Source: Escherichia phage P896. Taken from it: DNA of 64,000 nt. The stretch lies in the sequence record OL451225.1. The stretch is one strand, 5' to 3'. The notes beneath the pieces are model-generated. The model saw only the letters and a list, made by a program, of their open reading frames with translations. It did no database searches and was not told the origin of the DNA. Numbering within the stretch: position 1 is the stretch's first letter; every line of letters begins with the position of its first letter. Positions 10,693 through 28,998 of the stretch are shown piece after piece. A program made the translations under genes and the position numbers.

Positions 10693-12672
10693 ATGGCTTT
10701 ATTATCCCCGGGCATTGAGCTCAAAGAAACAACGGTCCAAAGCACTGTTGTTCGTAACGCGACGGGTCGTGCGGCGCTGGTTGGTAAATTCCAGTGGGGC
10801 CCAGCTTTCCAGGTAACTCAGATTACAAACGAAGTGGAACTTGTCGATTTGTTTGGTGGCCCGAACAATATTACGGCTGACTACTTTATGAGTGGAATGA
10901 ACTTCCTTCAATATGGTAATGACCTGCGCACTGTTCGTGTTGTTAACCGCGAATTTGCTAAAAACGCATCCCCGGTAGCAGGGAACATCGAAAGTACAAT
11001 CGCTACTGCTGGTTCCAACTATGCAGTCGGTGACGCTATCCAGGTTAAATACAACCAGACTGTTGTTGAAACTTCTGGCCGTATCACCAAGGTTGACGTT
11101 GACGGGAAAATCCTCGCAGTCTTCATTCCGTCTGACAAAATTATTGCCTTTGCAAAATCTGTAAACCAGTATCCTGCTTTAGGCCCGGCTTGGACTGCTG
11201 AAATCCTGACCACTTCTTCAGGTGTGTCTGGTACGATTACCCTCGGGAAAATCGTTACCGATTCCGGTATCCTGTTGACCGAAGCGGAAAATAGTGAAGA
11301 AGCTATTACCTCTCTGGAATTCCAGGCTTCCCTGCAGAAATATGCAATGCCAGGTGTTGTTGCTCTTTATCCTGGTGAAATCGGCTCGACTCTCGAAGTT
11401 GAAATCGTTTCCAAAGCTGCTTATGATGCTGGCGCTTCGAAGATGCTTGACATCTATCCGAATGGCGGTTCCCGCGCTTCTGTAGCTCGTGCAGTGTTTA
11501 ACTATGGTCCACAGTCTGACGACCAGTATGCAATCATCGTTCGCCGTGATGGTGCTATCGTTGAAAACGTTGTTCTGTCAACTAAAGAAGGCGATAAAGA
11601 CGTTTACGGCAACAACATTTATCTGGATGACTACTTTGCAAAAGGTACTTCCAATTACATCTATGCAACTTCTCTGAACTGGCCAAAAGGTTTTGCAGGC
11701 ATCATCAATCTGATGGGCGGTATTTCTGCAAACGACCAGGTTACCGCTGGTGATTTGATGCAAGGTTGGGACCTGTTTGCTGACCGTGAAGCACTGCACA
11801 TTAACCTGCTTATCGCTGGTGCTTGTGCTGGTGAAGGTGATGCGACTGCTTCCACTGTTCAGAAGCACGTAGTTTCTATCGCTGACGAACGTCAGGATTG
11901 CTTGGCATTTATCTCTCCACCGAAAGGTCTGTTGGTTAACGTTCCCCTGACCCGTGCAGTGGATAACCTGATTGACTGGCGTACAGGTAGTGGTGCATTT
12001 GATACTGATAACATGAATATCAGCACGACTTATGCAGCGATTGATGGCAACTATAAATATCAGTATGATAAATATAACGACGTTAACCGTTGGGTTCCTC
12101 TGGCAGCTGATATGGCTGGTCTGTGTGCTCGTACTGATGATGTTTCTCAGCCTTGGATGTCTCCGGCCGGCTATAACCGTGGTCAGATTCTGAACGTTCT
12201 GAAATTGGCTGTTGAACCACGTCAGACCCAGCGTGACCGCATGTATCAGGAAGCTATCAACCCGGTTGTTGGTTTCGCAGGTGGCGATGGTTTTGTTCTG
12301 TACGGTGATAAGACTGCAACTAAAGTTCCATCTCCGATGGACCATATCAACGTTCGCCGTCTTACGAATATGCTGAAGAAAAATATCGGTGACGCATCCA
12401 AATATAAACTGTTTGAGCTTAACGATAACTTCACTCGTGCATCATTCCGTATGGAAACTTCTCAATACTTGGATGGTATTCGTGCACTCGGTGGCATTTA
12501 TGAAGGTCGTGTGGTTTGTGATACTACTAACAACACCCCGTCGGTCATAGACCGAAATGAGTTTGTTGCTAGCATTTATTTTAAACCTGCGCGCAGCATC
12601 AACTATATCACTCTTAACTTCGTGGCAACAAGCACGGGTGCAGATTTTGATGAGTTGATTGGACCACAATAA
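10693..12672 (+). CDS. 18: contractile tail sheath protein gp18
   Basis: 659 aa, same length as T4 gp18; T4 synteny. Confidence 0.95.
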   Translation: MALLSPGIELKETTVQSTVVRNATGRAALVGKFQWGPAFQVTQITNEVELVDLFGGPNNITADYFMSGMNFLQYGNDLRTVRVVNREFAKNASPVAGNIESTIATAGSNYAVGDAIQVKYNQTVVETSGRITKVDVDGKILAVFIPSDKIIAFAKSVNQYPALGPAWTAEILTTSSGVSGTITLGKIVTDSGILLTEAENSEEAITSLEFQASLQKYAMPGVVALYPGEIGSTLEVEIVSKAAYDAGASKMLDIYPNGGSRASVARAVFNYGPQSDDQYAIIVRRDGAIVENVVLSTKEGDKDVYGNNIYLDDYFAKGTSNYIYATSLNWPKGFAGIINLMGGISANDQVTAGDLMQGWDLFADREALHINLLIAGACAGEGDATASTVQKHVVSIADERQDCLAFISPPKGLLVNVPLTRAVDNLIDWRTGSGAFDTDNMNISTTYAAIDGNYKYQYDKYNDVNRWVPLAADMAGLCARTDDVSQPWMSPAGYNRGQILNVLKLAVEPRQTQRDRMYQEAINPVVGFAGGDGFVLYGDKTATKVPSPMDHINVRRLTNMLKKNIGDASKYKLFELNDNFTRASFRMETSQYLDGIRALGGIYEGRVVCDTTNNTPSVIDRNEFVASIYFKPARSINYITLNFVATSTGADFDELIGPQ

Positions 12673-12707
12673 TTATCATCGCTTGGAATGAATTAATCAG
12701 TTAGAAA

Positions 12708-12758
12708 CCGTAGAACCATTATACAGTGTTATAAATAAAAGCATAATCGGTTCTACGG
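12708..12758 (+). promoter_or_regulatory. long-loop hairpin enclosing a late promoter (18-19 intergenic)
   Basis: 10-bp stem CCGTAGAACC/GGTTCTACGG with a 31-nt loop containing TATAAATA (12730-12737). Confidence 0.5.
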
Positions 12759-12816
12759 ACTCCTGTGGTTGATTCTGGGAAGCCATTATCTTGAGATGAT
12801 GAATCATATTACCTAG

Positions 12817-12824
12817 TATAAATA
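12817..12824 (+). promoter_or_regulatory. late promoter TATAAATA proximal to gene 19
   Basis: Exact TATAAATA about 50 nt upstream of the gene 19 ATG. Confidence 0.6.
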
Positions 12825-12876
12825 CATGCATCAGGGACGCGTTCGCGCGACCTGTGTCTATAAAGAGGATTCCTTA

Positions 12877-13368
12877 ATGGAGTTGACCGATATCACACGC
12901 GCTTTCGAATCCGGCGACTTTGCTCGCCCTAACCTGTTCGAAGTCGAAATCCCATTCCTGGGTAAAAACTTTGCTTTCCATTGTAAAGCAGCCCCGATGC
13001 CAGCAGGCATTGTAGAAAAAGTTCCGGTCGGTTACATGAACCGTAAAATCAACGTAGCGGGTGACCGTACATTTGATGACTGGACTATTACGATTTATAA
13101 CGACGATGCTCATAAAGTTCGTCAAGCAATTGTTGATTGGCAAAATCTGTGTCACGGTATGACTAACGAAATTACCGGTGCAGCTCCTGCTGATTATAAG
13201 AAAACTGCTACTGTCCGCCAGTTCCATCGTGACGGCAAAACTGTTACGAAAGAAGTTGTTATTACCGGCATGTGGCCAACCAACGTTGGTGAAGTCCAGA
13301 TGGATTGGGATTCAAACAACGAAATTGAAACGTTCGAAGCAACGTTCGCAATTGACTGGTGGGAATAA
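12877..13368 (+). CDS. 19: tail tube protein gp19
   Basis: Start at MELTDITRAFESGDFARPNLFEVEIP (recognised T4 gp19 N-terminal region) with AAGAGGA RBS; the track ORF starting at 12826 is an upstream in-frame extension. Confidence 0.9.
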   Translation: MELTDITRAFESGDFARPNLFEVEIPFLGKNFAFHCKAAPMPAGIVEKVPVGYMNRKINVAGDRTFDDWTITIYNDDAHKVRQAIVDWQNLCHGMTNEITGAAPADYKKTATVRQFHRDGKTVTKEVVITGMWPTNVGEVQMDWDSNNEIETFEATFAIDWWE

Positions 13369-22799: not shown

Positions 22800-22897
22800 A
22801 ATCTCTCACTTTTGATGTTATAAATATCATTATAAATTAGACCCACTATACTTTCTTTCTCTGAAAGGAATTAATAGTCGCAAAGGGGTCTAGAACC

Positions 22898-22925
22898 ATT
22901 ATACCACAATTTTATTTGAAGCAAA
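22898..22925 (-). promoter_or_regulatory. MotA-dependent middle promoter upstream of rnlB
   Basis: Minus strand reads TTTGCTTCA (MotA box), 13 bp, TATAAT. Confidence 0.55.
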
Positions 22926-22930
22926 AAGGG

Positions 22931-27354: not shown

Positions 27355-27471
27355 CTATTTAGTGCTCTTCATAATAGCAGCACGAGCTTTCATCTCATTA
27401 ACAATTTCGGTTATTCGGTTTGCAGAGATAACCATCTCGTCGAGAATCTTACTAATATTCTGTTTCATCAT
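27355..27471 (-). CDS. small protein (uvsY.-1-like)
   Basis: 38-codon ORF MMKQNISKILDEMVISANRITEIVNEMKARAAIMKSTK; its ATG overlaps the uvsY stop (ATGA). Confidence 0.45.
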   Translation of the reverse strand: MMKQNISKILDEMVISANRITEIVNEMKARAAIMKSTK

Positions 27472-27902
27472 TTACCTGCCTCGAATTGTCTTATTTCTAA
27501 CATATGTTTAAGTGCGAAACTTCGTGACTTAACACCATCTAATGCCGCGCTACAGAAATCCTGGAGCAGTGCCCAATACTGAATTGAAGTATCAATCTTC
27601 AGTACGCTTGAATCTGCGGCCATGACTGTTTTCAATTCTGACTTCTCGTATACATCCATGCATACTTCTTCCCCTGGGTCACCCCTTCCTGTATAATGGT
27701 CTAGTCGTTTTTTCAGTGCAGTTTTCTTCTGAATCTCAAGACGCATTATTTCTTTCTTGCAGTTGGTATACAATCTCAACCATTTGCTATGCAACAAAAC
27801 GTTGTTTTGTGTTTCATATTGAAGTTGTGTACCATCAATTTTTAAATCTGCATCTAACTCGTCCTGAAAGACTTCCAACTTATATTCAATCTCTGTTTTC
27901 AT
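27468..27902 (-). CDS. uvsY: UvsY recombination mediator
   Basis: Start at MKTEIEYKL...; segment ...QYETQNNVLLHSKWL...RGDPGEE...EAGK recognised as T4 UvsY-like. Confidence 0.9.
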   Translation of the reverse strand: MKTEIEYKLEVFQDELDADLKIDGTQLQYETQNNVLLHSKWLRLYTNCKKEIMRLEIQKKTALKKRLDHYTGRGDPGEEVCMDVYEKSELKTVMAADSSVLKIDTSIQYWALLQDFCSAALDGVKSRSFALKHMLEIRQFEAGK

Positions 27903-27930
27903 AATGTATCCAATGTAAGGGTCTAGAACC

Positions 27931-27957
27931 ATTATACAGCCATAAAATTAAAGCATT
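27931..27957 (-). promoter_or_regulatory. MotA-dependent middle promoter upstream of uvsY
   Basis: Minus strand ATGCTTTA (MotA box), 12 bp, TATAAT, then the conserved GGTTCTAGACCC block. Confidence 0.55.
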
Positions 27958-28345
27958 AACCGTTTTGACTTAGCTGAATCCTGATTTGTTCGAGGGTGTC
28001 AGGGTCATCAACAATGCTGAACTGAACCGTTACGATAATGGAGTTATCATCATACATAGGGACAACTGCAACCTGTAGATTGCTTATCCTTGGTTCAAAG
28101 TTCCGCACCGCGGAGACGATGTTGCGTTTAATGGTATCTGTGATTAATGGAGTGATATTCTCAAAAAGCTGATTACTTATATCACATCCAAATTCAGGCA
28201 TAAAAGGCCTTGACCCTTTTCTTGTGGTGATTATTCCCAGAAGGCTGTTCTTAACAGACCTTGCACCGGTTACTTTAGCAACGTCTTTATCCCAACTCAT
28301 TGACAAGTCGGGAGACACATCGCTATACATTTTGTTTATATTCAT
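27956..28345 (-). CDS. 25: baseplate wedge subunit gp25
   Basis: 129 aa; ...NSLLGIITTRKGSRPFMPEFGCDISNQLFEN... recognised as T4 gp25-like. Confidence 0.9.
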   Translation of the reverse strand: MNINKMYSDVSPDLSMSWDKDVAKVTGARSVKNSLLGIITTRKGSRPFMPEFGCDISNQLFENITPLITDTIKRNIVSAVRNFEPRISNLQVAVVPMYDDNSIIVTVQFSIVDDPDTLEQIRIQLSQNG

Positions 28346-28986: not shown

Positions 28987-28998
28987 TATTTATAAATA
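28987..28998. promoter_or_regulatory. divergent overlapping late promoters for gp26 (minus) and gp51 (plus)
   Basis: Palindromic TATTTATAAATA gives TATAAATA on both strands (minus 28987-28994, plus 28991-28998). Confidence 0.55.

Follow-up and report, generated by a model that had tools for sequence, protein, structure and literature searches.

The 204-bp gap between gene 18 (tail sheath, 10693-12672) and gene 19 (tail tube, 12877-13368) of the T4-like Escherichia phage P896 (genus Gaprivervirus) carries two predicted promoters of different temporal classes, which occupy the same 36 bp, one on each strand, within a conserved hairpin. We analysed this gap within a window of 64,000 nucleotides (sequence record OL451225.1), to which all positions refer unless another genome is named. 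A block of the gap recurs at the rnlB and uvsY genes, and this shared-motif puzzle has an ordinary solution: judged by its sequence, the block is the -10 hexamer, discriminator and start of a MotA-type middle promoter, of which the gap appears to hold a complete minus-strand copy. This candidate promoter is predicted to fire antisense toward late gene 18, and it faces no gene. We think it probable that the whole element is a compact unit of known parts, a bidirectional promoter used at different times on its two strands and set within the hairpin normally found after gene 18.

A near-identical relative at this locus is Escherichia phage vB_EcoM_VR20, which is 99.4% identical across 1.4 kb and 100% identical over the 204-bp gap. 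We used its complete genome (KP007360) as a stand-in for regions outside the window; these include the genes for MotA (VR20_271) and AsiA (VR20_264), and VR20 also encodes gp55 and gp33. The 18-19 spacer is present in 33 database records with at least 83% identity over the gap, all of them Gaprivervirus where a name or taxonomy is given. Scans of IMG/VR with GTATAATGGTTCTA and TATAAATAAAAGCATA returned, among the matches listed, mostly unrelated contigs. Our literature search on promoter mapping in VR7, VR20, JS98 or Gaprivervirus, and on anti-late RNA, yielded nothing usable.

The shared motif is well above background. TAGAACCATTATAC occurs exactly at 12711, 22891 and 27924, and at up to two mismatches it has seven matches in the window against 0.51 expected, a number reached by none of 100 shuffles. 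The original prediction had reported this recurrence at rnlB and uvsY, where the minus strand indeed reads TATAATGGTTCTAGACCC, and had set background frequency as grounds for dismissal. It had also placed the rnlB and uvsY copies in an opposite genomic context; in fact the context is the same, a minus-strand promoter in each case, here lying within a plus-strand late block. On the minus strand the three sites align well past the 14-mer, each with a MotA box that is separated by 12-13 bp from a -10 hexamer. The gap reads TTATGCTTTT-ATTTATAACACTG-TATAAT-GGTTCTACGG, with a 13-bp spacer, the discriminator GGTTCT and an A as +1; rnlB reads TTTTGCTTCA-AATAAAATTGTGG-TATAAT-GGTTCTAGACC and uvsY reads TAATGCTTTA-ATTTTATGGCTG-TATAAT-GGTTCTAGACC.

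These arrangements fit the published description of middle promoters in T4, (a/t)(a/t)(a/t)TGCTTtA at 12 +/- 1 bp from TAtaaT (PMC2988021). The segment 12711-12746 has the MotA box and the -10 spacing, and the phage, as represented by VR20, encodes both MotA and AsiA. We placed +1 at the A at 12711 because the spacing matches that of the mapped T4 P34i start, TATAAT followed by 6 nt and A. The pattern is specific, since [TC]GCTT-N13-15-TATAAT occurs 24 times in VR20 against 1.1 expected. Like the T4 MotA/AsiA promoters PuvsY and PrnlB, the gap copy has its box at -35 to -26 and, after 12-13 bp, TATAAT, and its core is identical to that of the phage's own rnlB and uvsY promoters. Unlike them, it faces no gene, lies antisense to gene 18 and overlaps a late promoter on the opposite strand. 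The features of the element and its two sense-oriented relatives are collected in Table 1.

Table 1. Coordinates of the 18-19 element and of related promoters in the window.
Feature	Position	Strand	Remarks
Left arm, CCGTAGAACC	12708..12717		-6 to +4 of the minus-strand middle promoter; invariant in 15 genomes
Predicted antisense middle start, A	12711	-	Runs toward gene 18; placed by spacing and T4 P34i geometry
Promoter module of 36 bp, MotA box to +1	12711..12746	-	Sole part of the gap in common with VR26 (94% identity)
Sigma-70 type -10 hexamer, TATAAT	12718..12723	-	13 bp downstream of the MotA box; invariant in alignment
Distal late promoter, TATAAATA	12730..12737	+	Predicted start 12743; 140 bp upstream of gene 19; invariant, including VR26
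MotA box, TTATGCTTTT	12737..12746	-	-35 to -26; 9 of 10 consensus positions; invariant in alignment
Right arm, GGTTCTACGG	12749..12758		Spans +7 to +16 of the RNA predicted from the distal late promoter and -38 to -47 of the middle promoter on the minus strand; invariant in 15 genomes; absent in VR26
Proximal late promoter of gene 19, TATAAATA	12817..12824	+	Predicted start ~12830
rnlB middle promoter, TTTTGCTTCA, 13 bp, TATAAT, GGTTCTA	22891..22926	-	Core same as the 18-19 copy
uvsY middle promoter, TAATGCTTTA, 12 bp, TATAAT, GGTTCTA	27924..27958	-	Same core; positional match to T4 PuvsY/oriF

The two sense-oriented sites have features of their own. At uvsY, the longest open reading frame (ORF; 27468-27932, as in the VR20 annotation) begins at an ATG inside the promoter's own TATAATGG (window 27900-27936, minus strand), and this annotated ATG lies upstream of the predicted transcript start at 27924. 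The true uvsY start is probably the ATG at 27902 (MKTEIEYK...), 10 codons shorter. In the rnlB leader (22838-22892, minus strand), the 5' AGACCC pairs with GGGUCU 41 nt downstream to give a stem-loop at the predicted 5' end of the mRNA, and the GGGUCU partner belongs to a degenerate repeat of the motif, its second copy here, at 22838-22851. The rnlB gap also has a TATAAATA on the plus strand (22819-22826), which points in the opposite direction.

The plus strand of the 18-19 gap was described originally as about 200 bp with two late promoters, the distal one in the 31-nt loop of a perfect 10-bp inverted repeat, and all of this agrees with our measurements. Late promoters carry TATAAATA at -13 to -6 (PMC1524935), and the distal copy lies, as in T4-type late promoters, upstream of a late gene on the same strand. 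It falls wholly within the 13-bp spacer and first MotA-box base of the minus-strand promoter. The predicted starts point away from each other across 32 bp, so the same DNA would be used by both polymerase forms, presumably at different times. A plus-strand sigma-70-like match in the region (TATACA-16-CATAAT, 9 of 12 positions) is at chance level, with two found against 2.2 expected.

The late-promoter regions of gene 19 resemble one another. TATAAATAAAAGCAT (12730-12744) and TATAAATACATGCAT (12817-12831) are identical at 13 of 15 positions and form a diverged direct repeat with 87-bp spacing. The proximal copy keeps degraded minus-strand remnants of a -10 (TAATAT) and a box (TGCATGT), and these remnants suggest a tandem duplication of the bidirectional module. 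About 3 nt past the predicted proximal start, the gene 19 leader (12833-12856, plus strand) has a G+C stem with a TTCG loop (CAGGGACGCG-TTCG-CGCGACCTG) that looks like a 5'-terminal stabilising hairpin; several of its stem positions differ among relatives in the alignment. Bidirectional packing is seen again between genes 26 (minus) and 51 (plus), where TATTTATAAATA at 28987-28998 comprises two overlapping divergent late promoters with 4 bp in common.

How is the element conserved within the genus? We aligned 15 of the 33 Gaprivervirus records and counted variable columns per region. None of the 20 columns of the two arms varies, compared with 4 of 33 in the loop, 20 of 36 in the left flank and 27 of 42 in the right flank. 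Variation in the loop is limited to two spacer positions, at one of which every base is found, and to two columns for 2 nt inserted between the right arm and the MotA box. No change touches the MotA box, the -10 hexamer or TATAAATA in any aligned genome.

Phage VR26 is informative since its homology to the window is confined to the 36-bp promoter module. The flanks are unrelated and the right arm is absent, yet both promoters are retained. VR26 has a separate hairpin between gene 18 and the promoter block, which our scan calls as a terminator on both strands and which would end the antisense RNA after ~65 nt, short of gene 18. A conserved function of that RNA in pairing with gene 18 coding sequence is thereby made less likely. 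Moreover, since VR26 lacks the right arm and keeps both promoters, the hairpin would be dispensable where another post-gene-18 hairpin exists. The original prediction had named loss of the repeat in close relatives as evidence against the element, and VR26 is such a case.

The neighborhood of the element also differs in its insertions. In the VR7, DK-13 and TH57 group, an HNH endonuclease gene ('19.1') lies between the gene 18 stop and the left arm; in VR26, a different HNH gene lies downstream of the promoter block. With homology ending at the 36-bp block in VR26 and two kinds of HNH gene adjoining the element in relatives, the proposal of a recombination site gains some support. The proposal of a processing site does not survive, as the shared motif is a predicted promoter and not a mobile or processing site. 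More broadly, insertion of free-standing HNH '19.1' genes into the 18-19 gap recurs, with at least two types of gene and with varying placement around the promoter element; several genera show it, T4-type phages among them (VR7 locus 1240-1845, VR26 locus 1379-2062, and our loci L011, L013, L014, L027, L035 and L039). At VR7 locus 1183-1210, the 19.1 gene's own late promoter lies in the loop of a GCGCGTA/TACGCGC hairpin right before an AAGGA ribosome-binding site (RBS) and GTG start, the classical homing-endonuclease arrangement; a TATAAT is found just upstream.

Other genera have a comparable promoter at the same place. We compared the 18-19 gaps in 79 gp19-containing contigs. In JS98-type phages (Dhakavirus), the minus strand of the gap reads TACGCTGTA-N13-TATAAT-GGTTTTAGG (TACGCTGTA-N13-TATAATGGTTTTAGG) and is invariant in six genomes save for one spacer base. 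The JS98-type uvsY promoter has the same unusual GCTGT box, and the variant box is therefore credible. In Klebsiella F48-type phages, which we take to be the genus Marfavirus, the minus strand reads TTGCTAAA-N13-TATAAT, and promoters in the gene 3/2 gap of two further lineages have the TGCTAAA box too. In the JS98 and F48 types, the -10 of the 18-19 promoter lies within an inverted repeat peculiar to the lineage (CCCAGGC/GCCTGGG in JS98, ACCTGAAG/CTTCAGGT in F48).

Hairpins at this position are common. A stable hairpin closely follows gene 18 in most of the T4-like lineages that we surveyed, and TATAAATA often abuts it or sits inside it. In T4-type gaps a late promoter comes after a tight G+C hairpin and the minus strand has no promoter, and the published list of 58 mapped T4 middle promoters has none between P1 (75393) and PrnlB (109763). 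VR20-type phages have no stable short-loop hairpin after gene 18, which leaves the 10-bp repeat as the sole candidate. The element thus resembles the T4 late-operon hairpin in its position after gene 18 and in the TATAAATA abutting or within it, and differs in having a long A+T-rich loop and no U-tract where T4 has a tight G+C-rich tetraloop.

One alternative is that only the plus-strand hairpin and late promoter work, and that the minus-strand promoter is a silent look-alike left by a recombination-junction cassette in the manner of the PeSL/PmSL cassettes (Arbiol 2010; Comeau 2014; PMC4122927). Such promoter-plus-stem-loop cassettes, including Mot-box versions, are recombination points in T4-like phages (PMC4122927). 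The exact end of VR26 homology at the edges of the 36-bp block, the HNH genes next to the element and the lack of a minus-strand promoter in the T4 gap all fit this alternative. The likeness to PeSL/PmSL cassettes extends to a repeated, conserved promoter core with a stem-loop at insertion/deletion boundaries: VR20 has five copies of the core TATAATGGTTCTA, and the VR26 and VR7 junctions lie at or beside the block. However, the PeSL/PmSL stem-loop is just upstream of the promoter, before a gene, in hyperplastic early regions. The 18-19 repeat encloses its promoter, with arms at -47 to -38 and -6 to +4, and it sits in the conserved late core with no minus-strand gene downstream. A silent promoter is also hard to square with the invariance of the MotA box and -10 while the two intervening spacer positions vary freely. 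Nor does the late promoter account for it: a late promoter requires TATAAATA alone, and the ATTATAC...GCAT flanks of the 18-19 copy are missing from all 31 other TATAAATA sites in VR20. Finally, in two other genera the minus strand carries a promoter at this position that is made of different sequence and has the genus's own box variant. We consider the silent look-alike unlikely.

What might the hairpin do? The stem extends as 10 + 5-7 bp, and the 31-nt loop shrinks to ~16-20 nt when the extra pairs are counted. As RNA, the plus strand folds at -20.7 kcal/mol (z = -3.5) and the minus strand at -27.1 kcal/mol (z = -6.0). As DNA the structure is weak (-10.7 kcal/mol), and in our judgement cruciform extrusion with so large a loop is unlikely. 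Among the 24 predicted VR20 middle promoters, an enclosing repeat of at least 10 bp is found only at the two antisense ones in late-gene spacers; the other 22 have repeats of 4-7 bp, which is background, and the chance of at least 10 bp at a random position is 0.005. Enclosure thus separates 2 of 2 antisense late-spacer promoters from 0 of 22 others (exact p ~0.004). Neither transcript predicted to start inside the unit holds both arms; each has one. The idea that the repeat modulates promoter use through DNA or RNA structure is consequently plausible at the RNA level only, in gene 18 read-through RNA, as the transcripts started internally hold a single arm.

Several standard identities for the hairpin were rejected. 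The terminator scan called no intrinsic terminator on either strand (plus tail ACUCCUGUGG, minus tail UUUCUAAC, loop 16-31 nt), and positions 12400-13000, searched against Rfam on both strands, had no match at E <= 1. An RBS-sequestering hairpin was rejected as well: a late start at 12743 does lie between the arms, but the defining pairing of the 3' arm with a Shine-Dalgarno sequence is absent.

The last of these would make the element a translational timing hairpin of the T4 e/soc/I-TevI type, in which long RNAs hide the RBS and internal late RNAs expose it. That mechanism is typified by a late promoter lying within a hairpin (PMC2988022), and the VR7 HNH gene 19.1 has one at its own start. 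In common with the known cases (T4 e, soc, 49, I-TevI/II/III and segB; Aeh1 mobE), the 18-19 element has an internal late promoter and late RNAs without the 5' arm. Unlike them, it sequesters no RBS, has no early or middle sense read-through, and holds an opposite-strand promoter in its loop. There is no Shine-Dalgarno or AUG in 12749-12790, and the gene 19 Shine-Dalgarno (12864-12868) is ~110 nt past the 3' arm. Since the upstream gene 18 is itself late, there is no early read-through to silence. We give this explanation almost no credence.

A protein-based explanation fares little better. The two GGTTCTA half-sites could form an operator for a dimeric regulator of the promoter subfamily, with half-sites adjacent at rnlB, uvsY and the gene 3/2 gap (GGTTCTAGACC) and split around the promoter in the 18-19 gap. 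GGTTCTAGACCC is a near-palindrome centred on TCTAGA that overlaps +1 at three promoters, and the same half-site makes up both arms here. However, the loop is 33 nt in the VR7 group rather than 31 nt, a 2-bp shift in arm-to-arm distance with unchanged arms, which suits a hairpin and not a rigid two-half-site operator. VR26 has a single arm, and no candidate protein is known. At the same promoters, downstream sequence differs between genera, a pattern that fits drift or gene conversion better. We regard an operator as very improbable.

The promoter belongs to a wider family. Each of the five TATAATGGTTCTA copies in VR20 lies behind a MotA-type box (TGCTT in four, CGCTT at 11024). The rnlB and uvsY copies are in sense orientation, and the other three are antisense: in the 18-19 gap against gene 18, in the gene 3/2 gap (75162, plus) against late gene 2, and in the srd/modA gap (11024, plus) against modA. 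The copy at 11024, with the box TAACGCTTTT, runs antisense into the early gene modA and lies back-to-back with an apparent srd early promoter. VR20 also retains a homologue of T4 P34i inside gene 34 (151636, minus). The T4 record annotates the P34i site as oriG, whose primer RNA runs opposite to gene 34.

T4 itself has a candidate in the gene 3/2 gap. On the plus strand at ~75,965-76,000 of NC_000866, it reads TAATGCTTTA-N13-TATAAT-GGGTCTAAGTCC (TAATGCTTTA-N13-TATAATGGGTCTAAGTCC), antisense to gene 2, and the published list of 58 T4 middle promoters does not include it. With T4 PuvsY (oriF) it has TCTAAGTCC in common, the two being alike through +9, and it lies ~2 kb from repEB/oriE; a replication review describes the oriE region as being without a middle promoter. 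Antisense MotA-type promoters in this gap occur in at least six lineages, namely Gaprivervirus, Dhakavirus, three more lineages and T4. Within each phage, the uvsY and antisense gene 3/2 promoters share one variant from -10 to ~+9 (TCTAAGTCC in T4, GGTTCTAGACC in VR20, GGTCCTA in JS98), and the variant differs between phages. To judge from these sequences, the per-phage variant suggests gene conversion between promoter copies or a co-evolving factor.

These relationships raise the question of replication. The minus-strand promoter could be the core of an R-loop origin like T4 oriG (P34i) or oriF (PuvsY), whose RNA would hybridise to the downstream A+T-rich spacer, prime a leftward leading strand and make the gap a recombination hot spot. 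T4 oriF and oriG each consist of a middle-mode promoter and a downstream unwinding element where an R-loop primes replication, and the primer RNA of oriG is transcribed against late gene 34 (PMC3016281; T4 annotation). TATAATGGTTCTA is common to the 18-19 and uvsY promoters, VR20 keeps the P34i homologue, and the 18-19 gap is an insertion hot spot. In VR26, moreover, the ~65-nt transcript means that only promoter-proximal RNA can matter. The 18-19 copy is like P34i/oriG in being a non-coding middle promoter against a late gene with the same TATAATGG-pyrimidine-rich-A geometry. Of the parts of an oriF/oriG-type origin, it has, judged by sequence, the middle-mode promoter; it is intergenic, hairpin-bracketed and a candidate origin, in contrast to oriG, which is a proven origin in a coding region. 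Against this explanation, though not decisively, the region from +1 to +60 is only moderately unstable (65% A+T, 79th percentile of duplex instability, compared with the 99th for the uvsY copy and the 39th for the P34i homologue), and a GC/AT skew scan found no change around the site. The ordinary rnlB promoter has the same core, and T4 has no mapped origin at genes 18-19. We find an R-loop origin here rather unlikely.

Several points weigh against the bidirectional unit that we favor. The last position of the MotA box is T and not the consensus A, and all start sites are predictions. The promoter is not universal, as T4's own 18-19 gap has no counterpart. The arms never vary and so offer no covariation, and all element-bearing genomes belong to one genus (33 records, at least 83% gap identity), so that invariance partly reflects shared ancestry. 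VR26 does without the repeat. By itself the repeat is unremarkable: the 64 kb contain four distinct perfect 10-bp repeats with loops of up to 40 nt (six k-mer hits), and first-order Markov simulations give 3.7 +/- 2.3 hits. Its case therefore rests on conservation, extended pairing and specificity. The plus strand lacks a U-tract and is not a canonical terminator, and the minus-strand RNA fold is the more stable of the two, which a plus-strand RNA model leaves unexplained.

With these points in mind, the bidirectional unit would work as follows. At middle times, a MotA/AsiA-dependent minus-strand promoter (box from 12746 to 12737, TATAAT from 12723 to 12718, +1 at 12711) would start an untranslated leftward RNA that runs antisense into the 3' end of gene 18. 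Late in infection, the plus-strand TATAAATA (12730-12737) in the spacer of the middle promoter would start gene 19 mRNA at ~12743, so that the same 36 bp would serve two polymerase forms at different times. What we observed directly is the layout of the sequence, how it is conserved and distributed, and its kinship to other promoters; the firing of either promoter and the starts are inferred. The left arm would be fixed by its part in the middle promoter (-6 to +4) and the right arm kept complementary to it. Gene 18 read-through RNA would fold on the plus strand into a post-gene-18 hairpin, a 3'-end or insulating structure that transcripts born inside the unit, with one arm only, would escape. 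We infer this RNA role because post-gene-18 hairpins are common in T4-like lineages, because the VR26 hairpin has a complementary distribution, and because enclosure is specific to 2 of 24 promoters. The simplest reading is that two independent constraints meet in one short spacer.

The antisense transcript is probably non-coding, to judge from the lack of conservation of the sole minus-strand ORF across the element. That ORF (12697-12831, 44 codons) is annotated as hypothetical in some relatives and is broken in UPEC01, VR25 and the VR7 group; we rejected it as a small gene. A 21-codon ORF seen by eye downstream of the antisense start was likewise rejected, as it has no Shine-Dalgarno and lies in a variable stretch. 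On the minus strand from 12711 to 8000 we found no convincing terminator for the transcript. An R-loop or primer role like that of T4 P34i/oriG and an anti-late antisense role for this RNA seem about equally likely, and an RNA without selected function is a third option.

Why place middle promoters against late genes? Such MotA-type promoters are neither rare nor accidental in T4-like phages, and several genera have them in the same spacers. The hairpin-associated antisense ones between late genes appear to be a conserved and so far uncatalogued class, with a candidate in T4 itself. It is conceivable, though we would not expect it, that the members of this class, the 18-19 copy in three genera and the gene 3/2 copy in at least six lineages including T4, are conserved non-coding initiation sites that start R-loop replication or recombination in the manner of oriG. 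For annotation, the 44-codon ORF called across the element in some relatives should be treated as spurious. These findings bear on whether origins beyond oriF and oriG use promoter-driven R-loops, a question left open in the review by Kreuzer and Brister, and on the source of the T4 'anti-late' RNA.

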